A DNA stretch of 64,000 nt from Candidatus Magasanikiibacteriota bacterium (GTDB lineage: Bacteria; Patescibacteriota; Patescibacteriia; Magasanikbacterales; UBA922), in the NCBI GenBank assembly GCA_016207245.1, contig JACQQA010000005.1, forward strand, positions 64,068 to 128,067. The letters are read 5' to 3'. The notes beneath the pieces were generated by a model, which made no database searches, was not told the origin of the DNA, and saw only the letters and a list, made by a program, of their open reading frames with translations. The position numbers and the translations under genes were made by a program. Numbering within the stretch: position 1 is the first letter of the stretch; every line of letters begins with the position of its first letter. Positions 7,289 through 58,540 of this stretch are shown piece by piece.

Positions 7289-10200
7289 ATGCAGAGCTTA
7301 TTCAAGCGAAAATTTTTTCTTATCCTGAAACGGTTTTCAGGTTTATTGAGGCTTAGAAAAAGCCGTGTTGGTTTTGGCGTTTTAACTGCGGTTTTAGCGT
7401 TGGGTGCTGCGGGATTTTTTATTCCCTCAGCGGCAAGAGCTTTGGGCGACATGGAAACTTTTTCCGGGGGTTTGATGCTGGCAATCAGCAAGTTCGCCTT
7501 GGGTTTGGGCGAGTTTTTTATAAAAATGAGCATTTTTTTCCTGCGGTTCTTTATCGCGTTAGCCCAATACAACAACTATATTGATTCTCCGGTGGTAAAA
7601 CTCGGCTGGCTCATGGTGCGCGATGTCGTCAATATGTTTTTTGTGGTGATTCTGTTAGTTATCGCCATCGGCACGATACTCGGCATGGAGCAATATCAGT
7701 GGAATAAGACTTTGGTGAAATTGATTTTAAGCGCGGTATTTGTAAATTTCAGCAATTTAATCAGCCAGCTTTTCATTGACGCGGCGCATATTTTCACCTT
7801 GACTTTTGCCAGCGCGATCTCCGCCACTGCCGGCGGAAATTTAATAAACATGTTTCATTTTGAAAAAATTTACGCCATCACTACCGGGAAAGTTGATGTC
7901 GGCGTGAAAGGAGAAAGTTTTGACATGATGGGCCGGACGCTGGTGGCTTCAATCGTGGCTATGTTATTCGCTCTGCTGGCCATGCTGGTGATGGGCGCTT
8001 ACGCGATAATGATGCTTTTACGGATGACCGTGCTGTGGGTTTTGATTATTTTATCGCCAATGGCGTTTTTGTTTATCGCTTTGCCGCAGACAACGAATCG
8101 CTATGGCGAATGGTGGAAAGAATTTTCCAATTACGTGGTGCTGGCGCCGACGATTTCGTTTTTCATGTGGCTGGCTTTTGCCACCGCCGGTTCCGGCACG
8201 CTGGGTTCTGATATTGGCATCACTGACAGCATGTTGCAGTCCGGCCAAATAGACTCGGTCGGCGCTTTGACTTTGTCCGCGGTGACAACTTGGGAAAACA
8301 TGGCGAATTTTTTGGTCGCTATCGTCTTGTTGTTCGTCGGTTTGCAGGAGGTGCAGAAACTCAATGTTGCCGGCGGCAGTGTCGCGAGCAAAGCTAAGGA
8401 TTTTTTCGGCAAAGTGGCGACGATCGCCACCGGTTACGCGGCCGGAAGATGGTTGGCTGGGAAAGCGGCGGCTGGAGCGAAAGCTGGCGTTGGTTTGGCA
8501 TGGAAAGGAACAAAAACCGCGGCGTGGTATGGGGTGAGAGGACAACAGTGGAAAGAGTGGGGGCAATATCAATATGCTTCTTTTCAGGCTTGGCGCAAAA
8601 ATACTCGCCGTCAGCCAAAACTTAAAACAGATGAAAAGGGGGAATTAATTAGAGTTGATGGCAAAGTGGTTTGGGATACCGATGAACAAGGCAGGGTTAT
8701 AATGGAAGAGGCGCCACCGGAAGGCATTAAAAGTGGAATTCAGCATTGGTTAAATAAGCGCGTGCAAGCAGATGATTTTAGCGCCAAGAGATTGAAGAAA
8801 ATGCAGGATTTTGAAAAAAAGAGAGAGGAATTGAATAGTCGTTATATTAGTGCTAATCCATCCCATAAATTTTTTATGGATGAAGCGGAACGTAATTCCG
8901 TAATGGAGATGAGAGACGAAAACGGTGAAGTAATGAAGGATGAAAAAGGGAAAACCAAGTATATACGTACTGATATTGCCAGGTTTGAATCTGGTATTGA
9001 GGAATTTAATAAAGCCAGGTCTAATGATAAAACCAAAGAGCATGCGGCGATGGGTCAGGCAGCGGCTGGCGCGGCCGAAAGGTACAAACTGACCGGCACA
9101 GAAGGTAAAATTCCGGTGTTGACTATAGTAGTAAAGAAAAAAGAGGATGAGACATCAATCAATGAACAAAGAGCCGGACACCAGATACGTTCGGAGTTTT
9201 GGGAAACAGCGATGACAAACGGGTTAGAGAAAGCCAAGTTAGATTACGCGTCATCTGAAGAAGGGCGGCAGTTTTTAGTTAATAAAGACGATTTGCGTTT
9301 GTCAACCGAGGCGGCCAAAGATAATTTTGTGGCAATAGAGAAAGAAATAGAGGAAGAGGCTTTAGGAGAGGGCAGGAAGGAGTATGAGGAAATGACTGCG
9401 AGAATAGAGGAAGAACAAAAAAAATTGCTTTCGGGAAAAGAAGTTTCTTTGTCAGCGGAATTAACAGGCATCGAAGATCAGATAGATGAAAAACAGCAAA
9501 AACTTTCTAGTCCGCTTATGGAAAGCGCTGATGCAGCTAGAGATGAGTACTTGGCCAAGCGAAAAGGATTGGAAAATAATCGGTCAGTGGTGGATAAGGA
9601 AGCAGTGGAAGAAATGGGGAAATTGAGCGAAGATGAAAGAAAAAGCATGGACGAACGTGTAAGTATAGAAAATGAGATTAATAATGCGGAGAAGATGCTC
9701 GGTGAGGCAAAGACACAGAAAGAAAAGAGTGTCGCAAGTGCAGATGTTGAAGGTTGGAAGCAAGTACTGGCTGACTTTGATGAGAAATATAAAGGTACGA
9801 CATTGGGTGCGTTTTTGGAAAAGGCCAAAGCTCATGATGTGATAGAGGAAAAAATAAGTACGTTGGACGCTGAATATAATATGGAAAAACTTCGGCGTGA
9901 ACAAGAAATAGAGCGAGTTGTGACCACAGATCCGGAATTGCAACGGTTAAGAGAAGAAAGGAAGACAAAAGAAAAAGCGTTGAAAGAAGCAGGCACGAAG
10001 TATCAACAGACCGATGAATATAAAACAAAGAAAGCAGAGGTTGATAGTAGAATCGAAGAGATAGAAAGAGGTATGAGCACGGCTGGGGCAGAGAGAATAA
10101 AAGCAAAAATTACGCGCCAAACATCAGAGGCGGCAGCTAAAAGAGCAGAAGAGCAGGCTATGCGAGCGGCCATGGGAGTTAATGGTTTGAGAAAGTTGTT

Positions 10201-12073
10201 TGAAGCGGCGCAAGTTGAAGAAATTTTGACCGATGCTGCCAAAAAATTTGTTGATGAAATTAAACAGGTGAAGCTCAAGGATTTGTTTGAAAAATCATTG
10301 AACAACATAAAACAATTTGGCAAGCAGGAGAGACAGTTAAAAGATGTAGAAAGAAAAGAGAAAATGGAAGAAGATCCGGCAAAAAAAGCAGAACAAAGGG
10401 CACAAATGGATGGGCTTAGAAAGGAGTTGAAAGGGTTACGCGAAGACATGGAGGCGCAGGCTGGCATCCAAATGGTGACGGCAAATGTGAGGCAGAAATA
10501 TACTCAAGAGGCGACAGGTATCGCGAAAGGAGAATTGGAAGATGAAGCAGATACAGTATATACACAAGAGCGGTACGGGTATGATTCCCCAGCTACGGCC
10601 TTCAAAGCTTTAATAAAGAAAAAAATGGATGAATTTCAAGGAGTGGAAAGAGAGCAATCAGTAGAAATGGCAATGGGGTCATTGGCGCATTTGGTTTCTT
10701 TACGTAAAGCGGGGGAAAGGTTGTCGCGCGATCAAGAAGCGATGCTAATGGCTGGTGTAACGTATTTGACCAAGCAAGCATGGTCTGATGATTTGTTAGA
10801 CAGAATGGCCAAAAAAACCAGAAGATTGAGGAGCGGTGGTCTACAGGGCGAGGAAAGAAAAAAGATGGAAGCAATTGAAGATTTGATGATTAATGAGTTG
10901 CATTGGGGGTCGGTGGATAAAGATACGGGGCAATGGAAAATCGTCAATCAATCTGACAACCGGCGCACGAATGATCTGCATCGTTTAATTGCTTATGGTG
11001 GTGATTCTGAATTGCTTGGCGCTGAAAACGCTGTCTTGAAACAGATGAACGTAACAGGATTGGGTTATGGTGCGGCGGCGGAGAAGATCGCCAAGGAAGT
11101 TCAAGCTGCTTTTGCGGGTAAGGAAATAAACGTATCAGCGCCGGAATTTAGTAGTGTGGCAAAAAAATTAGGATTTGACCCATCAGTAGAAAGGGATTTA
11201 AAGCAACTGCAAAATTTTGTCAGTAAATTTGTAGTCGGTGCTAAAGATGCTAAGGATTCTGTGGGTAGGTTTAAGGATTCAGTTAAGGACCATTTTGAGG
11301 CAAACCAAATGCTTGCCGACGCCAAAAATTTAGCTATGGCAGTCGGTCATCTTGATGATGGTGGACACACGTTTTATGACCAAAATGAAGGTGTATTCAG
11401 AGGAATGACACCGGAAGCGGCTATGCAATTTATTTTGTCGGATTGGCGCAAGGTTGGTTCTGATGAAAGGATGAAAAAATTAAAGGTTCATACCATTGCC
11501 CAGATGAACGAAGACACTGGCACGATAGCAATCGACGCTCGCAATCGAGACGCCATTCGTGAAACTTTTTTGAACGTTGACACTGAGTTAAACTTCAATA
11601 AGATGGATGGGCGTACAGTTGATCAAGTTGCCGGTTTGGCAGCAGGCGAAGCCGCGTTTATTGACCCAACAACAGGTAGGATGGTTTTGGGTCACAAAAA
11701 TTCGAAAATGCAATCGGGGACATTTGGCTATATAGAAGATGCTGGAAAAAGAGAAGAGGCGGCGTTAATTCAGTTGGCGGACAATTTCGCTGTGTTTTTA
11801 AATGAAGCGCCGACGATTTTGGCTGCATCATTGGGTAAACGGTCAAACGTGGGATTTGACCAGTCTGTAACCGGCGTATTTAATTGTCAGTTGCCTAACG
11901 GGAAGGTTATAAATAATGTAGATGATATAATAGATTTTGTTGAAACATACCAAAGAAGGAAGGAAGATCCAAAGGAGCGCATTGATTTAAATAATAAGAT
12001 GCAAATAAAGAAAGCGTTTACCAAACGACAATCTCAGCCACGAAAAAAGAAAAAAGAAGGGGAGGAAGAGTGA
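7289..12073 (+). CDS. VirB6/TrbL-like polytopic membrane protein fused to a ~1200-aa charged coiled-coil region
   Basis: The first ~400 aa contain multiple hydrophobic helices (e.g. FFVVILLVIAIGTILG, LVASIVAMLFALLAMLVMGAYAIMMLL, VLIILSPMAFLFIAL), laid out like T4SS VirB6/TrbL-type channel proteins. The remainder is K/E-rich and heptad-like. It is the first gene of an operon-like run ending in PrgI/VirB4. Confidence 0.6.
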   Translation: MQSLFKRKFFLILKRFSGLLRLRKSRVGFGVLTAVLALGAAGFFIPSAARALGDMETFSGGLMLAISKFALGLGEFFIKMSIFFLRFFIALAQYNNYIDSPVVKLGWLMVRDVVNMFFVVILLVIAIGTILGMEQYQWNKTLVKLILSAVFVNFSNLISQLFIDAAHIFTLTFASAISATAGGNLINMFHFEKIYAITTGKVDVGVKGESFDMMGRTLVASIVAMLFALLAMLVMGAYAIMMLLRMTVLWVLIILSPMAFLFIALPQTTNRYGEWWKEFSNYVVLAPTISFFMWLAFATAGSGTLGSDIGITDSMLQSGQIDSVGALTLSAVTTWENMANFLVAIVLLFVGLQEVQKLNVAGGSVASKAKDFFGKVATIATGYAAGRWLAGKAAAGAKAGVGLAWKGTKTAAWYGVRGQQWKEWGQYQYASFQAWRKNTRRQPKLKTDEKGELIRVDGKVVWDTDEQGRVIMEEAPPEGIKSGIQHWLNKRVQADDFSAKRLKKMQDFEKKREELNSRYISANPSHKFFMDEAERNSVMEMRDENGEVMKDEKGKTKYIRTDIARFESGIEEFNKARSNDKTKEHAAMGQAAAGAAERYKLTGTEGKIPVLTIVVKKKEDETSINEQRAGHQIRSEFWETAMTNGLEKAKLDYASSEEGRQFLVNKDDLRLSTEAAKDNFVAIEKEIEEEALGEGRKEYEEMTARIEEEQKKLLSGKEVSLSAELTGIEDQIDEKQQKLSSPLMESADAARDEYLAKRKGLENNRSVVDKEAVEEMGKLSEDERKSMDERVSIENEINNAEKMLGEAKTQKEKSVASADVEGWKQVLADFDEKYKGTTLGAFLEKAKAHDVIEEKISTLDAEYNMEKLRREQEIERVVTTDPELQRLREERKTKEKALKEAGTKYQQTDEYKTKKAEVDSRIEEIERGMSTAGAERIKAKITRQTSEAAAKRAEEQAMRAAMGVNGLRKLFEAAQVEEILTDAAKKFVDEIKQVKLKDLFEKSLNNIKQFGKQERQLKDVERKEKMEEDPAKKAEQRAQMDGLRKELKGLREDMEAQAGIQMVTANVRQKYTQEATGIAKGELEDEADTVYTQERYGYDSPATAFKALIKKKMDEFQGVEREQSVEMAMGSLAHLVSLRKAGERLSRDQEAMLMAGVTYLTKQAWSDDLLDRMAKKTRRLRSGGLQGEERKKMEAIEDLMINELHWGSVDKDTGQWKIVNQSDNRRTNDLHRLIAYGGDSELLGAENAVLKQMNVTGLGYGAAAEKIAKEVQAAFAGKEINVSAPEFSSVAKKLGFDPSVERDLKQLQNFVSKFVVGAKDAKDSVGRFKDSVKDHFEANQMLADAKNLAMAVGHLDDGGHTFYDQNEGVFRGMTPEAAMQFILSDWRKVGSDERMKKLKVHTIAQMNEDTGTIAIDARNRDAIRETFLNVDTELNFNKMDGRTVDQVAGLAAGEAAFIDPTTGRMVLGHKNSKMQSGTFGYIEDAGKREEAALIQLADNFAVFLNEAPTILAASLGKRSNVGFDQSVTGVFNCQLPNGKVINNVDDIIDFVETYQRRKEDPKERIDLNNKMQIKKAFTKRQSQPRKKKKEGEEE

Positions 12074-12102: not shown

Positions 12103-13527
12103 ATGCCAATAGTATATTTAGAAAATCCAGACAAATGGCTGGTGCCAAAGAAAAAAATGTTGGCTGATTTTGTTTCGCAAGCAGAAGGTGTCTTTGAAGG
12201 GGGGTGGGAAAAGGGTTCTTTGTGGCAATTATTTTCTTTTTTTGTTGAGGAGATGGAGACGGTGGAGATTGGCGATAATTATAACGAGATAGAGAAGATT
12301 TATCTCACTTATTTTGCCTATTTGGCTAATGATGATTTTGCGGACATATCTAATCTGCTGAAAACCGCCGTACAAAACCGCGTCGGACAATCAAATGTGG
12401 CAGACACACGAAAGCGGGTTGAATTGCAAAATATATTGGAACTTAAAAAATCAACCGCGGTTGATTTGATTAATCGCTTGAGTTGGGATGAGCTGGAGAA
12501 ATTGATGGATCTCTACGCGAGAGCCAAAAAGAAATTTATTCTAATTAGCACCGCTCTCTTGCATTACCAGCCCGCGCGCTCTCTTGATTATGAACAACTA
12601 AAAATGATCTTGCTCGGAGAAGAGCTGTCGGAAGAAAAAATAAAAGATTGGTTGCCGGTAGTTCGTCATTTGGCTCAGGGTTTTTTTGGCGACGATGGTC
12701 AGGTGAGGGACTTGGCCGTCGGCGTGCTGGTAAATTTAAAAGCGCAAGAAAATGGCGATGATAGCTTTACGATTACAGTAATTACCGCGCTCCTGCTGTT
12801 TGTCGCGTTCAAAGATTTTTATTCACTGAATAAAAATAATAAAATAGCACTTTTGAGCAAATATGGCTGGTGTGCTATGTTGATGGGTGTTCCTTGGCAG
12901 AAGAAAATTCAAGAAGGATTGACTGACGAACCATTTCTTGAGTACTATGTGTCATCTTCGGAGATTTTAGCAAAGTCGATTTTAGATAACCAAGAACCAA
13001 TAGTGGGCGGTAGCGCATTGTCTTTGGGCGGGTTTATCAGTCAATACGCGGCCGCCGTTCCGGTGGAAAAACAAAATGATTCACTCAGACAGGACCAATT
13101 CATTGCTGAATTAAACAAAGTAAATGATTGGCCGGAAGAAATCATGGTTGCTTTGAAAGGAATCCTTGATTTTTATTTGCACTTACGCGACTGCGACCTG
13201 GTGGACTACAAAGGCATGTTGAGCGAGGCGGGTGTTAAATCGCCACCGTTTGATTGGAGAGATTTAGTTTTTCGAGATTTAAGCGACGTAGATTTGGCAG
13301 AGGTGAGGGAATACATGAAAATTTTACGGCGGCCTTTTTCAGTCAGATCCGTGATTATTGTCGATTTTATGGATGTCGATTGGCGAAAAGAGCCGTATTT
13401 ATCGCGTCTTTTGACTTTAAGCGAAGTTTATGAAGAGATATATGGCCCCATTCACGAACCGTTGGTTTATTTTGATGATAAAACCGGACAGTGGGAATTG
13501 AATCAGACAAGGCCGCCAATTATTTAA
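12103..13527 (+). CDS. Hypothetical cytoplasmic protein (474 aa)
   Basis: Long ORF tightly spaced after the VirB6-like gene. No motif recognised. The C-terminal half shows weak by-eye similarity to the next ORF. Confidence 0.6.
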   Translation: MPIVYLENPDKWLVPKKKMLADFVSQAEGVFEGGWEKGSLWQLFSFFVEEMETVEIGDNYNEIEKIYLTYFAYLANDDFADISNLLKTAVQNRVGQSNVADTRKRVELQNILELKKSTAVDLINRLSWDELEKLMDLYARAKKKFILISTALLHYQPARSLDYEQLKMILLGEELSEEKIKDWLPVVRHLAQGFFGDDGQVRDLAVGVLVNLKAQENGDDSFTITVITALLLFVAFKDFYSLNKNNKIALLSKYGWCAMLMGVPWQKKIQEGLTDEPFLEYYVSSSEILAKSILDNQEPIVGGSALSLGGFISQYAAAVPVEKQNDSLRQDQFIAELNKVNDWPEEIMVALKGILDFYLHLRDCDLVDYKGMLSEAGVKSPPFDWRDLVFRDLSDVDLAEVREYMKILRRPFSVRSVIIVDFMDVDWRKEPYLSRLLTLSEVYEEIYGPIHEPLVYFDDKTGQWELNQTRPPII

Positions 13528-13533
13528 AGTAAT

Positions 13534-14490
13534 ATGACGGAAATAACAAAAAATTTTTATCATCACTGTTTTCAGTCTCCCGACGATGTGAAGAACGTTT
13601 TGGTTAAATTTTCTCAAGCCCGGTCAGAAATGGAAAAAGCTGGTGGTGAAAATTTAGAAAGATTTTATTTTTACGCGGATTTAATTTTGAAGAAATTAAA
13701 TACGGCTAAAGGCGAGGAAAAAGATCGGTTGGAAGGTGTTGTTAGGTTTTTAGACGCCGATTTAGTGAAAGATTTTATAAATAATCCACGCGACCCGTTT
13801 AAAGAGGTTGATTTGTCAAAAGAATTATTGACAGTAGCTTCAGGGTTGGGAGTATCGGCGGGTGCGGATCCATATGACCAGGAAGATATGCAAGCAATGT
13901 TGGGCGGCACATTTAAATTTTATAATGATATTCCTTTCGCTTATACACTGGGTTTGATTGTGGCAAATAGCAAAGATGTTGCGGTAGTGCCGGAGCTTTT
14001 GTTGGGATTTTTGCGTTTTGGCAACGAAAGTCCAGAGAGAGGGGTAGTGATAAAGTGGGAATCGGCCTTTCTTTTGGCATTGATTATGGCGGCATTATGG
14101 CGGCATTTTGGCGATTTATCAGATGATGGCCGTAAATTTTTACTGAATAATTATTTTTATTTGTCAATTGTAGCTGGTGCGCCGGTGCGATATGCTTTGA
14201 GGGATTTTGTTTATTCGCAAGGTGTTCGATCGTCGGAAAGAGGCAAGTTGGTGTCCGATTGTATATTAAATTTCAATTTGGAAGAAGTACCAATGAAAAC
14301 GACTCTTTCCGAATGGAAAAAATTTACTGAAATTGTAAAAAACTATATAGCTTTTCTTGGTAAAGAGTCGCCGGGTGGTTTTAAGCACGAAGAATTTTTG
14401 CAAGGATTTTATCAAGGCCAACCAAATAGGGATGTTTTTAAACGTTGGTTGCGCGATGTTCTGGGTATCTTATCTGATTTTAGCGCATGA
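13534..14490 (+). CDS. Hypothetical protein (318 aa), possible distant paralogue of 12103-13527
   Basis: Starts 6 nt after the previous stop. No motif recognised. Confidence 0.6.
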   Translation: MTEITKNFYHHCFQSPDDVKNVLVKFSQARSEMEKAGGENLERFYFYADLILKKLNTAKGEEKDRLEGVVRFLDADLVKDFINNPRDPFKEVDLSKELLTVASGLGVSAGADPYDQEDMQAMLGGTFKFYNDIPFAYTLGLIVANSKDVAVVPELLLGFLRFGNESPERGVVIKWESAFLLALIMAALWRHFGDLSDDGRKFLLNNYFYLSIVAGAPVRYALRDFVYSQGVRSSERGKLVSDCILNFNLEEVPMKTTLSEWKKFTEIVKNYIAFLGKESPGGFKHEEFLQGFYQGQPNRDVFKRWLRDVLGILSDFSA

Positions 14491-14495
14491 TATAT

Positions 14496-14599
14496 ATGGT
14501 AGTTCTCGTCAAGAGTTTCCCCAATACAGCCAAAAGATGTAAAAATGCGGTGAAATGGTAGTGTGGCGCAAGAAAAAAGTATAAAAAATAATCGTGAGG
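14496..14599 (+). repeat. Copy 1 of a degenerate duplicate of the 5' end of ORF 16512; contains a 21-codon mini-ORF
   Basis: ATG GTA GTT CTC GTC AAG ... AAA TGG TAG (14496-14561). 14529-14599 aligns with 15111-15200 (GCCAAArGAwGTAAAAATGCGGyrAAATGGTAGTGTGG ... TAAAAwATAATC). The TCCTCGTCAA-like start resembles 16531-16540. Confidence 0.65.
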
Positions 14600-14652
14600 A
14601 GTAGTTTCGTAAGACATTATGTCAAAACACTTATTTACAGCACGCCGGGTAT

Positions 14653-14964
14653 ATGGTGGTGTTTAAACCAACGATTTATGATAAAGATTTGAAAGTAATA
14701 AAAGGAAATGTTGATGCCGAACTGGTTTTACACTGTATGATAGAATACGCAAACTTTGATAAAGCAACTATTGTTTCCGGGGATGGGGATTTTCATTGTC
14801 CGATTAAATATTTGAGCGAGAACGGAAAGTTATTGAGGATCGGCATTCCTTCGCGTCGGAAGTTTTCTTCCCTGTTGCGCGGTTTTCGTTCTTATTTTTT
14901 CTTTGTGGATGATTTAAAACATAAATTGGAGTATAAAAAAAGACAGAGAGTGGATCAGGATTAA
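14653..14964 (+). pseudogene. NYN/LabA-like (PIN-fold) domain fragment lacking its N-terminal part
   Basis: GNVDAELVLHCM...ATIVSGDGDFHCPIKYL...GKLLRIG matches the C-terminal two-thirds of NYN/DUF88 domains. The N-terminal catalytic Asp segment is absent, and no in-frame extension exists upstream. Confidence 0.55.
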
Positions 14965-15014
14965 ACCTTTCACCATTGGCTCTGTCATCGTGATATTTAA
15001 AGTATATAATGAAA

Positions 15015-15200
15015 ATGGTTTTTTGTCAAGTGGATAACATTTATGCCTGCCCCGCTAAAACAATCCTCGTCAAAACCCCAACAATTACAACTTATTTTTC
15101 GCTTGATTTAGCCAAAGGAAGTAAAAATGCGGCAAAATGGTAGTGTGGTAGTAGAAAAAGTAGGGAAAAAATGGGAGTACGGTATAAAATAATCATAAGG
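15015..15200 (+). repeat. Copy 2 of the degenerate duplicate of the ORF 16512 5' end; contains a 42-codon mini-ORF
   Basis: 15060-15075 (ACAATCCTCGTCAAAA) is identical to 16527-16542 within the true gene start. 15111-15200 aligns with copy 1 (14529-14599). Confidence 0.65.
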
Positions 15201-15211
15201 TAAAGTTAAAC

Positions 15212-15240
15212 TTGACTTTGAAATAAAGGTATGGTAAAAT
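15212..15240 (+). promoter_or_regulatory. Promoter of the AAA ATPase gene
   Basis: TTGACT (15212-15217), 17-nt spacer, TGg-TAAAAT (15235-15240). Confidence 0.6.
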
Positions 15241-15269
15241 GAAAGTGCAGTTTAGAAATACATACACTT

Positions 15270-16508
15270 ATGATAAAAAACTTGATAAAACGTGATATTT
15301 TAGATGAAATTTTGAAGTATATCAATAAAGACGATGTTTTGGTGTTACATGGCGCGAGACAAGTTGGAAAAACATCCATAATGCTCTGTTTGCAAAATCA
15401 ACTGAATGCGGACGGTGAAAAAACATACTTTTTTGATCTTGAGGATTCAAGAAAAACAGACATCCTTGACGCTGGCGTGGAAAATTTTTTATCTTATCTT
15501 GAGGGGGCGGGATTTGATTTGAAAGAATTAAGCCGGTCGGATAAAAAATTATTTGTCTTTATAGATGAGATACAGAATCTTAAGAAACCGTCGTCTTTTT
15601 TGAAATTGTTGGCAGATCATCATAAGTATTTAAAGCTAATTGTGTCGGGTTCGTCCAGTTTTGATATTAAGAATAAATTTAGCGATTCGCTCGTTGGCCG
15701 GATAGTCAACTTTGAAGTTTTTAATTTATCATTCAGCGAGTTCTTGAGGTTTAAAAGCATTAACTATAACTTGGAACAGGTGTCTAAACTTGGCAAAGGG
15801 CCGATTTTTGAAGATGTCGTCCGTATGTATCGCGAATATGTTTTTTATGGCGGATATCCGAAGATTGTTTTGCAAGATTCAATAGAAATAAAAGAAAAAT
15901 ATTTGCAGATTATAATTGACACCTATGTGCGGAAAGACATAAGAGATTTGGTTAATATTGTGGAAATAGAAAAGTTTAATAATTTATTGAAAGTTTTGGC
16001 GGGGCAGAGCGGACAGCTTTTAAGCGTATCTGCCACGGCAAGCACAATAGGTTTGGCGGCGCAGACAGTTGAACAATATTTATCAATTTTAGAGAACACG
16101 TATATTATAAAGCTTGTCCATCCGTTTAGCCGTAGCGCCAATGTTGAGGTGTCAAAGGCGTCTAAAATATTTTTTTATGATACCGGTTTGTTGCAGGTAT
16201 TGCGTTATAAAGAACTGAGTGCGAGGATTAGCGGCGATTTGTTTGAAACTAGCGTTTTTGCCGAGCTCGTAAAAAAATATGGACGCGAGCACATACATTT
16301 TTGGCGGACACACAGGCACGCGGAAGTTGATTTTATTTTGGATTTGCGCGCTTTTCTTTTGCCGATAGAGGCGAAGACGAATTTTAGAAATTTTCAAAAA
16401 CATGCTGTCGGTTCATTTTGTCAGAAATATAAAGCCAAAGACTACAAAGTTGTTGGTTTAGAAGGAAAGAAAAAAGACGAACACTGCATTTATCCTTGGG
16501 AACTTTAA
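15270..16508 (+). CDS. AAA-family ATPase of the DUF4143-containing type
   Basis: Walker A is HGARQVGKTS and Walker B is LFVFIDEIQ. The 412-aa length and C-terminal region are typical of the archaeal/bacterial ATPase-plus-DUF4143 family, which is often found as an isolated accessory gene. Confidence 0.75.
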   Translation: MIKNLIKRDILDEILKYINKDDVLVLHGARQVGKTSIMLCLQNQLNADGEKTYFFDLEDSRKTDILDAGVENFLSYLEGAGFDLKELSRSDKKLFVFIDEIQNLKKPSSFLKLLADHHKYLKLIVSGSSSFDIKNKFSDSLVGRIVNFEVFNLSFSEFLRFKSINYNLEQVSKLGKGPIFEDVVRMYREYVFYGGYPKIVLQDSIEIKEKYLQIIIDTYVRKDIRDLVNIVEIEKFNNLLKVLAGQSGQLLSVSATASTIGLAAQTVEQYLSILENTYIIKLVHPFSRSANVEVSKASKIFFYDTGLLQVLRYKELSARISGDLFETSVFAELVKKYGREHIHFWRTHRHAEVDFILDLRAFLLPIEAKTNFRNFQKHAVGSFCQKYKAKDYKVVGLEGKKKDEHCIYPWEL

Positions 16509-16511
16509 AGT

Positions 16512-17675
16512 ATGGCAAATCAACCCACAATCCTCGTCAAAAAATCCGACGGCACGTCCGTAAGGATGAGTTGGGATGAGTTTCAAATTTACATGCGAAA
16601 TGCGAAAGACGCGAAAATGCGAAATGAGAAAAAAACGAGCGAATCACAGACTCCGAAATCAAAAATCATAACTCCTAAATCAGAACCACGAACTCCGGTT
16701 GGTGAATTGCCGGCGCTAGAGAGTGAAGTGTTGCCGGCGACGACGGCGCCGGTGAAGGAGATCTTTGTGGACGAAGCGAAATACATGCGAAATGCGAAAT
16801 ACGCGAAAATGCGAACAGCGAAAAATTATAAGATTGAGAGATTAAAAGATTATGGCAAAAAAGATTGGACGGCGGATGACAATAAATCATTGTTGGAAGA
16901 TGCGGTTGGTGAAGCGGTGAAAACGAAATCCGCGAATGTTTTGCCGAGCAAGAGGGATGATTTGTATGATTTGTTTGTTAAAGAAATTAGATTTCCGATT
17001 AAAGATGAGATGCGGGGGAGATTGAATTCCCTGGCAGTGTCTTTTGTTAAGGGGGTGAGGACCGAAGACCAGATGCGCGGGTATTTGCAAAGGAGCGAGG
17101 CGGATGGCGGGTTGGGATTTTCTGAAGAACAAACATCAGCGGTGATTGGAGCGATAAAAAAGGTTTGGCATTTGGCGAACACACCCCTCGCCCCTCTCCG
17201 AGAGGGGAGTTCGCAAATTCTCTCCTCCGAGAGGGGAAATTTAAGATTCCCCACTAAGAGTGAAGATCACAAGCTCCCTCCTCGGAGGAGGACGGGGGAG
17301 GTGTTGGGGATTAACACCAAACCTTTGGTTCAAGATGTGACGCCGCCGAAAGTTGAGCCAACCAAGAAAGTTTCCCTGGGGCCGATTGACGAAATCGCGA
17401 CAATGACATTGACAGATTTTCGCCGTTTGGCGACTGGCGGGATTGATTCGGTTCAGGTTTTGCGAGATAAGTTCTCGGCTTTAAGGAAAGAATCTGTTAT
17501 AATATACCTTCAAGCGCTGGACGCGTGGTTCGCGAGCCCTGTTTACAAAGATTACCAAAATTTAATCAAGCGCGCGGTGAATGAGGGGAGAAAGTTGACG
17601 GAGGTGGTGAACGATGGTGGTGGAATAAAATGGGAAGAACTGACGCGGATAGCGGAGGTGGGAAGGGCGGTTTAA
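16512..17675 (+). CDS. Hypothetical protein (387 aa) carrying three in-frame copies of intergenic-type repeats
   Basis: Long ORF. Contains the ATGCGAAATGCGAAA-type unit twice (16593-16626, 16785-16825) and the CCCCTCTCCGAGAGGGG composite element (17175-17310). The C-terminal ~110 aa look like ordinary globular sequence. Confidence 0.6.
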   Translation: MANQPTILVKKSDGTSVRMSWDEFQIYMRNAKDAKMRNEKKTSESQTPKSKIITPKSEPRTPVGELPALESEVLPATTAPVKEIFVDEAKYMRNAKYAKMRTAKNYKIERLKDYGKKDWTADDNKSLLEDAVGEAVKTKSANVLPSKRDDLYDLFVKEIRFPIKDEMRGRLNSLAVSFVKGVRTEDQMRGYLQRSEADGGLGFSEEQTSAVIGAIKKVWHLANTPLAPLREGSSQILSSERGNLRFPTKSEDHKLPPRRRTGEVLGINTKPLVQDVTPPKVEPTKKVSLGPIDEIATMTLTDFRRLATGGIDSVQVLRDKFSALRKESVIIYLQALDAWFASPVYKDYQNLIKRAVNEGRKLTEVVNDGGGIKWEELTRIAEVGRAV

Positions 17676-17721
17676 ACATATAAACATTTTAACTTTTAAA
17701 CATAACAACGAACTGGAGGAT

Positions 17722-18078
17722 ATGCCGAATTTTTGCGATGAATTGAAATTAAAAATGCATGAATATGTAAAAAATGCGTATCATTTGGCGAGAAAGTTCC
17801 CAACGGAAGAACTTTATGGAGTTACTTCACAATTGAGAAGATCCGCATTGTCAGTAATACTGAATTTTATTGAAGGGTACGCAAGATTTAAACCGGGCGA
17901 TAAACTACGTTTTTGGGAAATATCCTATGCATCGCTGAAAGAATCAAAGTACTTGCTTTACTTCAGTATGACCGAAGATTATCTCACCAAAGAAGAGTAT
18001 AAGCAAATATTAACAAATGCCGAGGAAGTGGGGAAAATGTTATGGCGTGTTATGTCGCCATTGCGCGAGGGTAAGTGA
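17722..18078 (+). CDS. Four-helix-bundle protein (23S rRNA intervening-sequence protein family)
   Basis: 118 aa. EELYGVTSQLRRSALSVILNFIEGYAR matches the family signature (..L.sQlrRaa.Si..NiaEG..r). GGAGG lies 3 nt upstream of the ATG. Confidence 0.8.
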   Translation: MPNFCDELKLKMHEYVKNAYHLARKFPTEELYGVTSQLRRSALSVILNFIEGYARFKPGDKLRFWEISYASLKESKYLLYFSMTEDYLTKEEYKQILTNAEEVGKMLWRVMSPLREGK

Positions 18079-18109
18079 TGTTAAGATGTTTTTATGTTAA
18101 GATGTTAAA

Positions 18110-18547
18110 ATGTCTATGCAACAGTTTGTAGTACCGCAATTCATTGACGTGGAAGACAAGATTTTCGGGCCGATAACCGTAAGGCAATTTTTGATTCTGC
18201 TGGCCGGCGGTCTGCTGGTGTTTCTCGCTTTCAAATACGCGGATTTCGCCTTGTTCATCACGAGTTTAATAGTTGTGGGAGGTGGTTCGCTGATTGTGGC
18301 GTTTGTAAAAATCAACGGTCAAACATTTCATTATTTTATTTTAAATTTATTGCAGACTGTCCGTCGGCCGGGACTGCGCGTGTGGCGGAAAAATTATGAC
18401 AAAGACGAATTAAATTATTTGCGCTTACTGGAGCCGCCGGAGATTGAAATTAAAGAAGTGAGGAAGGCGGCGCGGAGCGAACATATCAGAGATTTGGCTT
18501 TAATCGTGAATACCGGCGGGTTTTATCGGCCGGAGGAGGATTTATGA
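18110..18547 (+). CDS. PrgI-family (VirB3-like) small T4SS membrane protein
   Basis: The N-terminus QFVVPQFIDVEDKIFGPITVRQFLILLAGGLLVF, followed by two TM helices, is the PrgI-family pattern. The ORF overlaps the next ORF by 4 nt. Confidence 0.7.
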   Translation: MSMQQFVVPQFIDVEDKIFGPITVRQFLILLAGGLLVFLAFKYADFALFITSLIVVGGGSLIVAFVKINGQTFHYFILNLLQTVRRPGLRVWRKNYDKDELNYLRLLEPPEIEIKEVRKAARSEHIRDLALIVNTGGFYRPEEDL

Positions 18548-19233
18548 AAAACGAAAAAGTTAAAAAGAAAAAAACCGGCAAGCCATCCACGCAGACTCAT
18601 CTGCCGATCGCGGAGATTAAAGACGGCGTGGTGGTTTTGAAAGACGGAACTTTGCGCGCGGTGCTGATGACTTCCAGCATTAATTTCGCGTTGAAATCCG
18701 AAGACGAACAAAACGCCTTGATTTCATCTTATGTGAGTTTTTTAAATTCTTTGGATTTTCCTTTGCAAATCGCCATCCAATCGCGCCGTTTGCAGATTAA
18801 GCCTTACGTGGAAAAATTAATCCAACTGGAAAAAGAACAGCCAAACGAGCTTTTGCGCATTCAAACCGCTGATTACCGCTCTTTCATTCAAGAGTTGATA
18901 CAAATGGGGCAGATCATGACCAAGCGTTTCTACGTGGTGGTTCCGTATGATCCGCTTTCCAACAGCAGAAAATCTTTTTGGGCCAAATTTAAAGAGGTGC
19001 TGAAACCGGCTTTGAGCGTGCGGTTGAAAGAAGAAAGATTCAAACAGCGGGTGGAAGATTTAAATTTGCGTTTGCGCCAAGTGTTTTCCGGTTTGCAAGG
19101 CATGGGGCTCGAAGTGGTCCAGCTTGACACCCAGGCGGTGATTGAGTTGTTTTATTCCAGCTACAATCCGGACATCTCTTTTGCCGAACAATTACAGCCG
19201 ATTGAACAACTACAGATTGAACATAATCTATAA
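18544..19233 (+). CDS. VirB4 N-terminal-domain-like protein (separate ORF)
   Basis: LPIAEIKDGVVVLKDGTLRAVLMTSSINFALKSEDEQNALISSYVSFLNSLDFPLQI resembles the N-terminal domain of Gram-positive VirB4/PrgJ/TcpF-type ATPases. TAA at 19231-19233 is followed 1 nt later by the ATG of the ATPase ORF, which is in another frame. Confidence 0.55.
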   Translation: MKNEKVKKKKTGKPSTQTHLPIAEIKDGVVVLKDGTLRAVLMTSSINFALKSEDEQNALISSYVSFLNSLDFPLQIAIQSRRLQIKPYVEKLIQLEKEQPNELLRIQTADYRSFIQELIQMGQIMTKRFYVVVPYDPLSNSRKSFWAKFKEVLKPALSVRLKEERFKQRVEDLNLRLRQVFSGLQGMGLEVVQLDTQAVIELFYSSYNPDISFAEQLQPIEQLQIEHNL

Positions 19234-19234
19234 T

Positions 19235-21139
19235 ATGGCTTTTAAGCCGATCACAACTGACAAGCGGTTCCTTGGCGGAGCGAAAGCGCAAGAGGAAACA
19301 GAAAAGAAAAAGAAAGAAGTGAAAGAGGGGCTGATTTCTTTGGAAGAGGAGCGCGTTTATCGCGAAGGCACGGTCGCCATCCGCGATTTAATCGCGCCGT
19401 CCGCTTTTCGGGTTGAGTCAAATTTCATCCAATTGGGCGAAACGTTTTTGCGCACGATTTTCGCCATCACTTATCCGCGCTATATCGCCGTGGGCTGGAG
19501 CGCGCCGATTTTGAATTTCAACGCCACCATGGACACGTCAATGTTTTTTTATCCGATTAATTCAGCGATTATTTTAAAACAATTAAAAAAGAAAGTCGGC
19601 GTGTTAGAGGCGCAAATCAGCGCGGACGCGGAAAAAGGCGCGGCGCGCGATCCGTTGCGCGAAACCGCTCTCCGCGATATTGAACAACTGCGCGATGATT
19701 TGACGCAAGGCACCGAACACTTCTTTCAGTTTGCTTTTTATGTCACTTTGTACGCGAAATCAGTTGACGAGCTGAACAAAATGACGGAAGACATTGAAAA
19801 TGTGTTTGGCGCGCGGTTGATTTACAGCAAGCATGTCTTGTTTCAGGCCGAACAGGGTTTCAATTCCACTATGCCGCTGTGCGTGGATGAATTAAACATC
19901 GCTTTTAACATGAATTCATCGCCGATCGCCGCGTCTTTCCCGTTTATGTCCGCCGAACTGACCAGCGACAACGGCATTTTATACGGCATCAACCAGCACA
20001 ATAATAGTTTAATTTTGTTTGATCGTTTTAGTTTGCAAAACGCCAATATGGTGGTGTTCGCGACATCCGGCGCCGGTAAATCATACGCGGTGAAGCTTGA
20101 AGTTTTGCGCAGTCTAATGATGGGCACTGACATCATTATCATTGATCCGGAAATGGAATATCAGCATTTGTGCGAAGCGGTTGGCGGCACTTACGTCAAT
20201 ATTTCTTTGGCATCGGAAAGCAAAGTTAATCCATTTGATTTGCCCCGTCCGGTCGGCCAGCAGATTTCCACCGAAGACGTGATTAGAAGCGCGATAATCA
20301 CTTCAAAAGGATTAATCAGGATAATGTTCGGCTCTTTAAGCGCGTTGGAAGATTCAGTAATGGATCAGGCCTTGCGCGAGACTTACGCGAAAAAAGATAT
20401 CACGCCCAGCTCTAATTTAGCCACGGTTGAACCGCCGATAATGCAGGATTTATTGGATGTTTTGGAAGGCATGGAAGGGGCGCAGACATTGGTTTTGAAA
20501 CTTAAAAAATATACGGAAGGCACTTTTTCCGGTTTATTTAATTCGCCGACCAATGTTAACATGAATAATCAGCTCGTGGTTTTCAGCGTACGCGATTTGG
20601 AGGACGAATTACGGCCAATGGCGATTTATAGTTTGGTTAATTATGTTTGGAATATTGTCAGGAGTGAGCGGAAAAAACGCTTGTTGATTATTGACGAAGC
20701 GTGGTGGCTGATGACGCATGAAGACAGCGCGAAATTTATTTACGCGCTGGTTAAAAGATGCCGCAAGTATTATCTGGGCGTTACGACTATTACGCAAGAC
20801 GTCAATGATTTTTTGCAATCGCAGTATGGACATTCTATCGTTACCAACTCGGCTTTACAACTTCTTTTGCGCCAATTGCCGGCCGCAGTTGATATTATCC
20901 AAAAAACTTTCATGCTGACTGAAGGCGAGAAATATTTATTGCTGGAAAGCGCGGTGGGCGAAGGGATTTTTTTCGCCGGTTTGAAGCGCGCCGCGATTAA
21001 AGTCGTCGCGTCTTACACCGAAGACCAACTGATCACTTCCGATCCGGCGCAGTTGATGCAGATAGAAAAAGCCAAACAAGAGTTTGAAGCGCAGATGGGC
21101 GCGCCGCAGGGCGGCAAACAGGATATGGATATAGGATAG
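19235..21139 (+). CDS. virB4: VirB4-type T4SS ATPase, C-terminal ATPase part
   Basis: Walker A is ATSGAGKSYAVK and Walker B is RLLIIDEAWWLM. GVTTITQD and the overall layout are typical of VirB4/TraE/DUF87 ATPases. The start was moved to ATG 19235 because the track's 19142 extension overlaps the previous gene and reads as nonsense. Confidence 0.85.
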   Translation: MAFKPITTDKRFLGGAKAQEETEKKKKEVKEGLISLEEERVYREGTVAIRDLIAPSAFRVESNFIQLGETFLRTIFAITYPRYIAVGWSAPILNFNATMDTSMFFYPINSAIILKQLKKKVGVLEAQISADAEKGAARDPLRETALRDIEQLRDDLTQGTEHFFQFAFYVTLYAKSVDELNKMTEDIENVFGARLIYSKHVLFQAEQGFNSTMPLCVDELNIAFNMNSSPIAASFPFMSAELTSDNGILYGINQHNNSLILFDRFSLQNANMVVFATSGAGKSYAVKLEVLRSLMMGTDIIIIDPEMEYQHLCEAVGGTYVNISLASESKVNPFDLPRPVGQQISTEDVIRSAIITSKGLIRIMFGSLSALEDSVMDQALRETYAKKDITPSSNLATVEPPIMQDLLDVLEGMEGAQTLVLKLKKYTEGTFSGLFNSPTNVNMNNQLVVFSVRDLEDELRPMAIYSLVNYVWNIVRSERKKRLLIIDEAWWLMTHEDSAKFIYALVKRCRKYYLGVTTITQDVNDFLQSQYGHSIVTNSALQLLLRQLPAAVDIIQKTFMLTEGEKYLLLESAVGEGIFFAGLKRAAIKVVASYTEDQLITSDPAQLMQIEKAKQEFEAQMGAPQGGKQDMDIG

Positions 21140-21155
21140 TATTTAATTATTTTTT

Positions 21156-21755
21156 ATGTTGGACATACGCAAACGAATCTTTATTATCTTAAGTTTGGCG
21201 ATTGGCTTTATTTTGGCTTTCACGCTGTTGTTTTATTTTTTATCAAACAAAAAGAAGGCCGAAGAGGCAGTAGCGCCGTTGACTGGAGAGACAACAACGG
21301 AGACTGCTTCCACATTGCCGAGCGGAGTTTCCGCGCCGACCGGCGGAACAGTCGCGCAACCAGCCAAAGCGCCGGAGGTTTTTGTTCCGGTTGAGAAGTC
21401 GCGCGAGATTTACGCGAAGCAGATCGCCAGATTATTCGTGGAAAGATTCACCACTTTTTCCAATCAGAACGGCAACACGCATATTGATGATGTTTTAATT
21501 TTATCCACCGCTCAAATGGGCAAGTGGATTGAAACACAAAAAATTAAAGCGGCGGCGGAATATCAGGGCGTAACCACGAAAGTGATTGCCGCGAGCGTTT
21601 TAAATATTTCTGACAATAGCGCGTCAGTCAAAGTTGACACCCAACAAATTAAAAGCAGCTCCGGCAAGCAAGAAACGACATATCGGTCAGGCACGGTTGA
21701 TTTGGTTGATGTGAATGGGGAGTGGAAAGTGGGTGGATTCTATTGGGAAAAATAA
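21156..21755 (+). CDS. N-terminally membrane-anchored protein, possible VirB8/PrgL-like (NTF2-like) component
   Basis: Single TM helix (IFIILSLAIGFILAFTLLFYFL), a Thr/Pro/Ala linker, then a ~120-aa domain with a helix-then-strands pattern ending ..VNGEWKVGGFYWEK. The call rests on position directly after VirB4 and is an inference. Confidence 0.3.
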   Translation: MLDIRKRIFIILSLAIGFILAFTLLFYFLSNKKKAEEAVAPLTGETTTETASTLPSGVSAPTGGTVAQPAKAPEVFVPVEKSREIYAKQIARLFVERFTTFSNQNGNTHIDDVLILSTAQMGKWIETQKIKAAAEYQGVTTKVIAASVLNISDNSASVKVDTQQIKSSSGKQETTYRSGTVDLVDVNGEWKVGGFYWEK

Positions 21756-21759
21756 TTGA

Positions 21760-21844
21760 CATGCGAAATGCGAAAGACTGCGAAATTGCGAAAAAACAGT
21801 TGTAGTAATTGTTCGCATTTTCGCAGTCTTTCGCATTTCGCATG
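21760..21844. repeat. Large inverted repeat built from the ATGCGAAATGCGAAAGAC unit
   Basis: 21760-21785 and 21819-21844 are perfect 26-nt reverse complements. The arms extend to 34 nt with 2 mismatches, and the loop is 17 nt. It lies between the stop of 21156-21755 and comFC. Confidence 0.9.
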
Positions 21845-22552
21845 TTTTTTATGTTTAGCCCATCAGGACAGAAAATAATTGAAGTTGCCAAGGATTGTTT
21901 GTTTCCGATCTTTTGTTTAGATTGCGGCAAAGAGGGCGAGTGGATTTGTCCGGATTGTTTTGGCAAAATGGATTTGCGCGGCGTTTTTTGTTGTCCGGTT
22001 TGCCATCGGCCGAATGGGAGCGGAACTTGTTGCGCAATTTGCCAGCCGCAATCTTGTTTAGACAAAGCAATGGCGATTGCGGTTTATCAGGAGGAAAATT
22101 CGGTCGGGCGATTGATTAAGGCGCTAAAATATAATTACGCTGAAGATGCGCTGGCGGCGTTCGCGAAAATGATTGACGGTTTTTTAATTCATCAACTCGG
22201 CGTTTTGTCAGAAGTTGATTTGATTGTTCCGGTGCCTTTACACCGCCGCCGTTTGGTTGAACGCGGATTCAATCAAGCGAGATTATTGGCGGATATTTTG
22301 GGGCAGAAAATCGGACGGCCGGTGGTTGAATGGTTGCAGCGAGAGCGTTACACCATGCAACAAGCTAAACTTTCCCGCGAAGAACGTCGCGCGAACGTTC
22401 ATCAGGCTTTTGCTAATGGTGATTTTAAGGCTGACGCGGTTTTGTTGGCTGACGATGTTTTTACTACCGGCGCGACTATGCAGGAGTGCGCGCGGGTGTT
22501 AAAAAGTTCCGGCGTTAAAAAAGTGATTGGATTTAGCGTTGCGAGGGGGTAG
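21842..22552 (+). CDS. comFC: ComF-family competence protein (phosphoribosyltransferase type)
   Basis: N-terminal Cys4-type zinc motifs (CLDCG..CPDCF..CPVCH..CAIC) and the C-terminal PRTase motif VLLADDVFTTGATM. The start was placed at ATG 21842 (or 21851) because the track start at 21809 lies in the inverted-repeat arm. Confidence 0.85.
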   Translation: MFFMFSPSGQKIIEVAKDCLFPIFCLDCGKEGEWICPDCFGKMDLRGVFCCPVCHRPNGSGTCCAICQPQSCLDKAMAIAVYQEENSVGRLIKALKYNYAEDALAAFAKMIDGFLIHQLGVLSEVDLIVPVPLHRRRLVERGFNQARLLADILGQKIGRPVVEWLQRERYTMQQAKLSREERRANVHQAFANGDFKADAVLLADDVFTTGATMQECARVLKSSGVKKVIGFSVARG

Positions 22553-45247: not shown

Positions 45248-45373
45248 GTCATTGCGAGCCTTCGCAGGCGCCTGCCTGACGGCAGGCAGGAAGCAGTCCA
45301 CACCGTTATCGCGCTCCCATGCGATTGCTGGATTGCTTCGTCCCTCGCCATGGCGGGGTCCTCGCAATGACAG
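45248..45373. repeat. Palindromic (MITE/REP-like) element, copy E2
   Basis: Outer arms GTCATTGCGAG / CTCGCAATGACAG. Shares GGATTGCTTCGTC and the GCCTGCCTG..GGCAGGCAGG hairpin with E1 (25822-25946), and contains a CCTCGCCATGGCGGGG hairpin. Confidence 0.85.
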
Positions 45374-45378
45374 ACAAT

Positions 45379-58430: not shown

Positions 58431-58540
58431 CAAATTCCCTCCTCCCCGATATTCATCGGGATAAACTCCGGAGGGCGAGGGAGGTGTTGGCGGTAAGACA
58501 GCGAACACACCCCCTGCCCCTCTCCGAGAGGGGAGACTTA
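58431..58540. repeat. Composite hairpin element, intergenic copy of the one inside ORF 16512
   Basis: 58501-58535 (GCGAACACACCCCCTGCCCCTCTCCGAGAGGGGAG) matches 17175-17209 at 33/35. GGGAGGTGTTGG (58479-58490) matches 17296-17307. Contains the hairpins CCCCGAT-attc-ATCGGG and CCCCTCTCcgaGAGGGG. Confidence 0.8.

Follow-up and report, generated by a model that had tools for sequence, protein, structure and literature searches.

Integration of the SXT element in the 5′ end of a gene is described as requiring an integrase encoded by the element itself (PMC2791158). Other segments, termed unconventional circularizable structures (UCS), are described as bounded by direct repeats and as being excised in circular form although no dedicated recombinase is present (PMC7843796, citing Palmieri 2013). 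PDC-S01, which combines an AAA ATPase with a PD-(D/E)XK domain, is reported to be a very common and experimentally unvalidated candidate anti-phage gene, which ranks fourth in frequency among prokaryotic "defence candidates" (PMC12988326). In the papers retrieved on DUF4143 or PDC-S01, the abstracts and term-matched passages contain no mention of flanking duplication or cassette mobility. Here we describe a 64-kb stretch of DNA (the window, WIN) from a metagenome-assembled genome of Candidatus Magasanikbacteria. Within it, defence-type genes are recurrently inserted at the start of open reading frame (ORF) 16512, a gene of an operon resembling those of type IV secretion systems (T4SS), and even close relatives differ in the order of the inserted cassettes. 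We consider it reasonably probable that a small array of defence-type cassettes, with one gene each, lies inside the first ~40 nt of this conserved gene, and that these cassettes integrated through recombination between a cassette-borne and the resident copy of the gene start.

The operon lies on the + strand and comprises a gene for a 1594-aa membrane protein, the genes at 12103-13527 and 13534-14490 (both encoding proteins without a Pfam family), ORF 16512 (up to 17675) and genes for a PrgI-family protein and a TraG/VirB4-like ATPase. The ORF 16512 family occurs in Magasanikbacteria, and its N-terminus, M..QPTILVKKSDGTxVRM, is strongly conserved. Conservation is also visible at the nucleotide level: a comparison of 35 loci revealed an island with sharp edges around the T codon of TILVK (about -6 to +30), in which the major-allele frequency is 0.78-0.81 at positions 0 to +29, as opposed to 0.41-0.47 on both flanks. 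The block that is duplicated upstream of the gene is this same stretch.

Relatives were collected by scanning one genome per species with a 9-sequence alignment, which yielded 39 loci, and further loci were added from protein look-ups. The upstream operon gene is followed immediately by the ORF 16512 homologue in 27 out of 37 related loci, an arrangement anticipated in a preliminary description of the window that had been made from its letters alone. At these empty sites the gap, measured to the T codon of TILVK, is 13-104 nt long. The site is filled in 10 loci, which carry NYN, ATPase or AbiE cassettes in varying order (Table 1), and orphan copies of the gene start were recognised in 8 of them; besides the window and L002, they are present in L008, L011, L013, L021, L044 and L045. 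In L002 both cassettes adjoin an intact start copy after ...AAAAATCC(G/A)AC, exactly where the true gene goes on with GGCACG. Additionally, the same ATPase (95% aa identity) stands on the opposite side of the NYN gene in L011 as compared with the window and L002.

The coordinates and sequences quoted in the preliminary description were all found in place. A 21-codon mini-ORF that opens with the ATG at 14496 reads MVVLVKSFPNTAKRCKNAVKW up to its stop, and another, at 15009/15015-15143, ends with ...AKTILVKTPTITTYFSLDLAKGSKNAAKW and a stop. The second contains, at 15060-15075, the 16-mer ACAATCCTCGTCAAAA, which is repeated exactly at 16527-16542 and occurs nowhere else in the window, so the identity reported earlier is both exact and unique. 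Copies 1 and 2 also match each other: 14528-14577 matches 15110-15159 (84% over 50 nt), 14582-14606 likewise pairs with 15183-15207, and the 28-nt core GTAAAAATGCGGYRAAATGGTAGTGTGG occurs in the window twice, at 14539 and 15121, with 0 occurrences expected. We compared the copies by Smith-Waterman scores against 1000 dinucleotide shuffles. Copies 1 and 2 are clearly related (z=14.9, 0/1000 shuffles as high), and so are copy 2 and copy 3, the true start (z=5.7, 0/1000). The similarity claimed for all three thus holds for two of the pairs; between copies 1 and 3 it is not significant (z=0.6, 299/1000), and the relation of copy 1 to the gene start is not demonstrable from the window alone. It therefore rests on the relative L008, with whose orphan start and leader copy 1 is collinear from CTCGTCAA through the core (z=16.4). 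A further relationship proposed in the preliminary description, between KNAAKW and RNAKDAKMRNEKK, did not stand out from dinucleotide shuffles.

The block common to copies 1 and 2 (14528-14606 / 15110-15207) sits between the orphan start and the ATPase gene in L002, L008 and L011. It had been aligned earlier as 14529-14599 with 15111-15200 and taken for decayed gene sequence. The alignment is real, but judged by its position in these relatives the block is the 5′ leader of the ATPase cassette. Copy 1 therefore marks an additional ATPase cassette, a third one, that has been lost.

Repeats of this kind might also be a generic intergenic repeat or a functional operon leader, such as an upstream ORF or an attenuator, unrelated to gene insertion. 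The mini-ORFs are indeed intergenic and begin with ATG, and genomes of the Candidate Phyla Radiation (CPR) carry small dispersed repeats, others of which we saw in the window. Yet the leader core, present only twice in the 64 kb, was found in 127 fetched loci solely before ATPases at the T4SS-gene target, which is not the pattern of a repeat flanking many unrelated genes that the preliminary description had named as contrary to its proposal. A search of the whole window against Rfam gave only five tRNAs above the gathering threshold and no known RNA family for the repeats, and most relatives lack the mini-ORFs entirely. Those that exist are not conserved: in copy 2 of the window a 1-nt frameshift separates the ATG (15043) from the ACA at 15060 and puts the ATG out of frame with TILVK, and the orphan start of L011 has lost its ATG. 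The mini-ORFs are therefore not conserved peptides, and the explanation is very improbable, being largely refuted. What these lesions record is that the orphan starts are decaying. Together with the empty sites and the arrangements in L001, L002 and L011, this bears out the earlier proposal of successive insertions at the start of ORF 16512, each of which regenerates the start and leaves the older copy to decay.

Table 1. Features around the start of ORF 16512 in the window, and the layout of the same site in relatives that carry cassettes
Feature or locus	Position	Strand	Description
Upstream gene of the T4SS-like operon	13534..14490	+	318 aa, no Pfam family; the ORF 16512 homologue comes directly next in most relatives
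Orphan start A1 (ATGGTAGTTCTCGTCAAGAG, "MVVLVK")	14496..14515	+	Probable, strongly decayed gene-start copy; basis: collinearity with L008
L′, remnant of an ATPase-cassette leader	14516..14606	+	Of the short type seen in L008; not followed by an ATPase gene of its own
NYN-domain pseudogene	14619..14964	+	Start codon kept, 167-nt internal deletion; remaining ORF 14653-14964
NYN cassette right end	14965..15042	+	Promoter-like CTGTCA-17-TATAAT (14982-15010) and TTGTCAAGTGGATAACATT
Orphan start A2 (ATGCCTGCCCCGCTAAAACAATCCTCGTCAAAACCCCAAC)	15043..15082	+	Holds the exact 16-mer of the true start; frameshifted relative to its own ATG
ATPase-cassette leader L (AATTACAAC...)	15083..15269	+	Holds the conserved core GTAAAAATGCGGCAAAATGGTAGTGTGG and a TTGACT-17-TAAAAT promoter
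Intact AAA_14 + DUF4143 ATPase	15270..16508	+	PADLOC candidate defence gene PDC-S01
Functional start A3 (ATGGCAAATCAACCCACAATCCTCGTCAAAAAATCCGAC)	16512..16550	+	3 nt past the stop of the ATPase gene; ATPase cassettes are accompanied by the "M(A/P)NQP" version
Target gene ORF 16512	16512..17675	+	387 aa, no Pfam family; upstream of PrgI and the VirB4/TraG-like ATPase
Window (WIN)			A1 + L′, NYN pseudogene, A2 + leader + intact ATPase, A3 as true start of ORF 16512
L001			Full 166-aa NYN, then gene; no ATPase
L002 (= L005)			Start copy fused straight to NYN, second start copy + leader + ATPase, true start
L011			Start copy + leader + ATPase (95% aa identity to that of the window), NYN of the window type, gene
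L008, L044, L045			Diverged ATPases (62-65% aa identity), layout alike
L013			NYN, orphan start, NYN fragment
L021			Decayed start copy, two DUF4143 ATPases, intact orphan start with promoter, AbiEi/AbiEii
L023			NYN only; no orphan seen

In the array of L021 (L021:3100-8010) we counted four cassettes at the same target. The starts of its units have in common a leader of ~90 nt, composed, in order, of a hairpin with a 13-bp stem (AAAACCTTTTAAG..CTTAAAAGGTTTT), GTAAAAATAGGG and a perfect DnaA-box-like TTATCCACA. The duplicated block of this locus extends to the promoter of the gene, TGTGNTATAAT.

The two genes inserted in the window differ in their state. The NYN gene between copies 1 and 2, previously regarded as truncated, is a pseudogene, but one with an internal deletion rather than a missing 5′ end: it is ~95% identical at the nucleotide level to the NYN gene of L011 and lacks 167 nt just past the start codon, which shifts the frame. 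Its Pfam NYN (PF01936) match is limited to profile positions 62-142 of 145 and so falls short of a full-length domain, in contrast to the full-length 166-aa homologues of L001 and L002. The TTGTCAAGTGGATAACATT motif at the right end of the cassette also lies upstream of the start copy that follows the NYN gene in L001, L002 and L011. In the NYN gene of L011 (L011:6886-7398) an in-frame TGA takes the place of a conserved Trp codon (GGATGAATT, compared with GGGTGGAAA in L001), which suggests that this gene is also decaying, unless the host reads TGA as a sense codon.

The second gene, as noted earlier, is complete and preceded by its own promoter-like site, TTGACT-17-TAAAAT with a TG motif, at 15212-15240. 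It matches AAA_14 (E=2.9e-27) and DUF4143 (E=4.4e-36) in Pfam and PDC-S01 in PADLOC (E=4e-77), and it has the layout of PDC-S01: an N-terminal AAA_14 P-loop and a C-terminal DUF4143 (PD-(D/E)XK) in one protein of ~400 aa. DUF4143 is listed among the PD-(D/E)XK nuclease superfamily (PMC3424549). Among the window, L002 and L011, its ratio of nonsynonymous to synonymous divergence (dN/dS) is 0.10-0.16, as compared with 0.02-0.05 for core genes, which suggests that the gene is functional and under weaker constraint than the core genes.

The filled sites also bear on the mechanism through the origin of the working start. After ATPase cassettes it follows, in every case, the stop codon by 3-4 nt. 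In the window, L002, L008 and L045 it reads ATG (GCA|CCC|CCG) AA(T/C) CAA CC.., that is MANQP or MPNQP, even though these ATPases are only 62-65% identical; in L044 it reads MSVSQP. The orphan N-termini are different and of the resident type (MPTKP, MPSNQP, MNMGTTP and MPTQP). Behind these codons the core is nearly identical between orphan and working copies (22/23 in L045). This pattern implies that the first codons of the working gene arrive with the cassette and that those of the orphan are the resident ones. The flanking direct repeats come from both element and target, and the target gene is reconstituted, with a resident-type orphan and a cassette-type working start.

Based on this, we propose that each cassette would be a self-contained unit, consisting of its own leader and promoter, one ORF and, at the right end, a copy of the target-gene start (A*). 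Integration would proceed by reciprocal recombination of A* with the resident start, the crossover falling within the ~35-nt nucleotide-conserved core, CAACCCACAATYCTCGTMAAAAAATCCGAC, and the topology would be that of a Campbell-type insertion of a circle. The product would consist, in order, of the resident N-terminal codons joined to the cassette leader (the dead orphan start), the cassette gene, and the ATG and first codons brought by the cassette, joined in frame to the remainder of the gene. The target gene would stay intact, and its transcription, together with that of the cassette gene, would probably be driven by the cassette promoter. Excision of a circle (leader-gene-start) would follow from recombination between the two start copies, and this circle could enter any genome with the conserved start. 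Both the circular intermediate and the enzyme are inferred. For the latter, the simplest candidate would be the homologous recombination machinery of the host, acting on the short conserved core, while a trans-acting recombinase or assistance from the nuclease of the cassette may be an alternative.

A crossover inside the core predicts exactly the observed N-termini, and local duplication in situ does not. In the latter case, insertion would be transposition-like: wide staggered cuts, made perhaps by the ATPase-PD-(D/E)XK nuclease of the cassette itself, would be followed by gap filling that duplicates 20-290 nt of the target. Such a process would suit the sharp ends of the cassettes (from the -35 box to the stop codon), the nuclease-superfamily domain that they encode and the near identity of some flanking copies at other loci (98% over 52 nt in L060, 97% over 63 nt in L097). 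It is harder to reconcile with the copies at the T4SS target, which are unlike in their first codons and near-identical in the core (in L045, MNMGTTP as against MPNQP), or with the recurrence of the same MxNQP start beside such diverged ATPases. The length of the duplication is also highly variable, we saw neither terminal inverted repeats nor conserved termini, and the NYN and AbiE cassettes have the same architecture without encoding this enzyme. We therefore regard duplication in situ as unlikely.

Recombination between the cassette-borne and resident starts also offers a possible history of the window. The leader of copy 1 passes straight into the 5′ untranslated region and ATG (14619) of the NYN gene, and this, together with the similarity of the two NYN genes, suggests descent from an L011-like state: orphan start, leader, ATPase, NYN, start, gene. 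The first ATPase would then have been lost, leaving L′ at 14516-14606; the NYN gene would have suffered its 167-nt deletion, and a new ATPase cassette would have entered at the working start.

In addition, we compared the age of the cassette with that of its surroundings. Among the window, L002 and L011, the synonymous divergence (dS) of the ATPase gene is 0.17-0.20, as opposed to 0.47-0.91 for VirB4 and PrgI, and differences at four-fold sites amount to 0.08-0.12 and 0.21-0.46, respectively. Thus, the ATPase cassette appears to be younger than its host genomes. This bears on the idea of an old vertical arrangement, in which one ancient NYN + ATPase insertion was followed by differential loss, while gene conversion or constraint kept divergence low and preserved the orphan cores. 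The same cassette types do recur at the site across the clade, and the ATPases of L008, L044 and L045 are about as diverged as their host genes. Vertical descent fits poorly, however, with a cassette dS 3-5 times below that of the adjacent core genes and with the different order of ATPase and NYN in L011 and in the window or L002, despite ATPases that are 95% identical. Nor does it fit orphan cores that remain 22/23 identical to the working copy where the ATPases are synonymously saturated (0.54-0.57 at four-fold sites), or near-identical cassettes in unrelated contexts elsewhere. We judge it improbable, slightly more so than duplication in situ.

Several observations weigh against integration by recombination of the two starts. 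The cassettes encode no recombinase (each has a single ORF, NYN or ATPase) and none was identified in the operon; no integrase family was found among the nine ORFs scanned across 12103-21139, a range that leaves ORFs 7289-12073 and 21809-22552 outside. The shared core of just ~25-40 nt is short for RecA-dependent recombination. The junctions vary by cassette type (after TCCGAC, after GCCGACGG, or after ...GGCACGTTC), with no single crossover point for all; as they lie up to ~15 nt apart, separate origins for each type fit better than one site-specific crossover. A clear start copy between ATPase and NYN is missing in L011, and in L023 we saw no orphan whatsoever. No circular form was seen for the ORF 16512 locus, for which assembled sequences are the sole data, and every sequence comes from a metagenome assembly. 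Finally, the lower dS could in principle result from gene conversion instead of transfer.

To see the ATPases outside this target, we fetched 80 metagenomic loci with genes 50-94% identical to that of the window; they represent one subfamily, and 66 have usable flanks, genes at contig edges being excluded from the counts. In 23 of the 66 loci the upstream flank shares a direct repeat with the downstream one (23-289 nt long, 76-100% identity), whereas inverted-orientation and shuffle controls stayed at background in nearly every locus (top inverted score 28.5). In a modest control set of ORFs ≥250 aa from the same loci, repeats flanked 6 of 78 (Fisher p=6e-5), and these 6 include another DUF4143 ATPase and an AbiEi-like gene. 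Of 20 loci checked, 12-14 have a repeat that overlaps one end, 5′ or 3′, of a neighbouring long reading frame; one copy runs on into the gene without a break, and its counterpart is an orphan. In most cases the upstream copy stops 71-115 nt short of the ATG, and the downstream copy often begins 0-9 nt past the stop.

Cassette pairs that are 80-95% identical occur in unrelated contexts, and their homology extends from a few nt upstream of the -35 TTGAC to ≤10 nt past the stop; by these boundaries, the mobile unit would span from the promoter -35 box to the stop codon. We did not find conserved termini or terminal inverted repeats, only a conserved promoter region and C-terminal "YPWEL" codons. 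Many of the cassettes display, by eye, a long near-perfect palindrome across the -35 box and the spacer (L086:~2000-2090, L070, L080), for example TTGACTTTAATTTATATC-C-GATATAAATTAAAGTCAA in L086, which could be an operator or a structured cassette end. Downstream of the 92% identical cassettes of L049 and L052 there is, in both loci, a fragment with homology to the C-terminus of one kind of gene, and hence cassette lineages appear to be bound to particular targets, as is the case for the T4SS gene. In L046 (1996-4290) a cassette with a 63%-identical ATPase stands just after a Phage_integrase-family gene, whose final ~46 nt, stop included, are duplicated downstream of the cassette. The 1719-nt contig VAPM010481509.1 (L057) carries a PDC-S01 ATPase alone and has a perfect 83-nt terminal overlap, which points to a circular or tandem unit of 1636 nt, and another contig has tandem cassettes with a period of 1790 nt; both are possible intermediates.

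Terminal overlap of the kind seen in L057 is also typical of assembler behaviour, and as we worked with metagenome assemblies throughout, strain mixtures could have produced chimeric contigs with duplicated flanks. The same architecture and orphan starts, however, recur in assemblies from five or more distinct samples or projects (HY569, GCA_001784235/RIFCSPLOWO2, NC_groundwater and two Logan runs), the copies are diverged (76-98%) rather than identical, and several examples lie on contigs of 100-800 kb. Given this recurrence in independent assemblies and on long contigs, an artefact is the least probable of the explanations that we weighed, with hardly any weight left to it.

The survey allows us to suggest, tentatively, that AAA_14-DUF4143 (PDC-S01) genes are widespread minimal mobile cassettes that extend from promoter to stop codon, each lineage of which is tied to one host-gene terminus, carries a replacement copy of it and integrates by recombination, possibly helped by its own ATPase-nuclease. 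If this were true, PDC-S01 would represent a hitherto undescribed kind of selfish gene, one that either moves without a recombinase or mobilises itself.

Some further features of the window concern ORF 16512 and its neighbours. Two in-frame copies of a ~44-nt repeat, TACATGCGAAATGCGAAAGACGCGAAAATGCGAAATGAG, lie within the gene at 16590-16633 and 16782-16825 (+), where they read "YMRNAKDAKMRNEK". The repeat also forms an inverted pair, 21751-21794 (+) / 21829-21843 (-), in the spacer before a ComF-like gene at 21809, and its 15-mer occurs 6 times (0.7 expected). The variable middle of ORF 16512 holds a 35-nt GC-rich palindromic element, GCGAACACACCCCTCGCCCCTCTCCGAGAGGGGAG, at 17175-17209; a second copy, with 94% identity, is found 41 kb away at 58501-58535, and the homologues P0002-P0004 have other insertions at the same place of the protein alignment. 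In L002 the public annotation of the homologue P0003 begins at MSWDEF, while the conserved N-terminus MPNQPTILVKKSDGTSVR is present in frame upstream at 6948 (L002:6948-7003); the deposited annotation therefore misses the real start.

Between ORF 16512 and PrgI, at 17722-18078, this genome alone has a gene for a 23S_rRNA_IVP / bAvd-like four-helix bundle. It is missing in L001, L002 and L011, and L007 has one after PrgI. No duplicated PrgI start accompanies it, just a 13-nt tandem, ATGTTAAGATGTT, at 18078-18107, immediately 3′. Two neighbouring short direct repeats, 25884-25951 and 45323-45378, are 81-88% identical and ~19.4 kb apart. A crude ungapped screen of the window for orphan copies of other gene starts gave none, though the method is blind to the case of ORF 16512 as well, and tblastn of the window revealed no further ATPase, NYN or IVP copies.

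In general, such cassettes would show how very compact CPR genomes could gain and swap defence genes within tight operons without breaking them, since the cassette supplies a spare of the gene terminus that it interrupts. An abundant and uncharacterised "defence candidate", PDC-S01, may be a discrete mobile unit with a recognisable scar, which bears on the question of immunity versus selfish spread. The scar, an orphan gene terminus with a cassette leader, is a simple marker for cassettes, their targets and lost insertions in metagenomes, and the wider pattern around PDC-S01 genes merits a systematic survey.

It is worth comparing these cassettes with the systems described so far. With integrative elements that rebuild their target, such as SXT, they have in common insertion inside the 5′ end of a conserved gene, a near-identical target sequence carried by the element, flanking direct repeats, and a gene that functions with the element-supplied start. 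SXT, however, is ~100 kb long and encodes its own tyrosine integrase and Xis, whereas here the inserts are single genes of 0.5-1.5 kb without a recombinase, their junctions shift slightly by cassette type, and they stack in arrays at one site. The inserts differ from integrase-driven elements (integrative and conjugative element, prophage or island) in that each is a single ORF and encodes no tyrosine or serine recombinase. They do not match an insertion sequence (IS) or transposon either: we saw no transposase family and no conserved or inverted termini, and the duplications, of 23-289 nt, have no fixed length.

Integron cassettes are likewise single ORFs that stack in one orientation at one site, with content varying among relatives. 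Here, in contrast, the cassettes have their own promoters, and the repeated unit is a piece of host coding sequence (the start of ORF 16512) with an ATPase leader. We rejected an integron array, as there is no attC-like imperfect inverted repeat within or between the repeat units, nor IntI or attI (nine ORFs, 12103-21139). Phage "morons" and free-standing homing endonuclease genes are similar in being compact independent transcription units between conserved genes, polymorphic in presence and absence, and in encoding a nuclease-family protein. They leave no duplicated gene terminus, though, and the host here is a cellular CPR genome; the ATPase has no close relatives in viral contigs, where we found proteins ~25% identical at best and no copy of the leader core. 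Thus, for integron cassettes as well as for IS elements and homing endonuclease genes, at least one of the defining features that we tested is absent here.

By analogy, UCS seem to be the closest match in mechanism. Neither has a recombinase gene, and in both the flanking direct repeats come from resident sequence. An excised circle with one repeat should be able to re-enter a homologous site, although the circles at our locus are themselves inferred. UCS differ in that their repeats are usually hundreds of bp or longer and that they carry resistance genes in Firmicutes, while at the T4SS target the repeated unit amounts to ~40 nt of a gene start. These recombinase-less, promoter-bearing single-gene defence cassettes, which stack at the start of a conserved operon gene, may be regarded as a variant of target-rebuilding integration.

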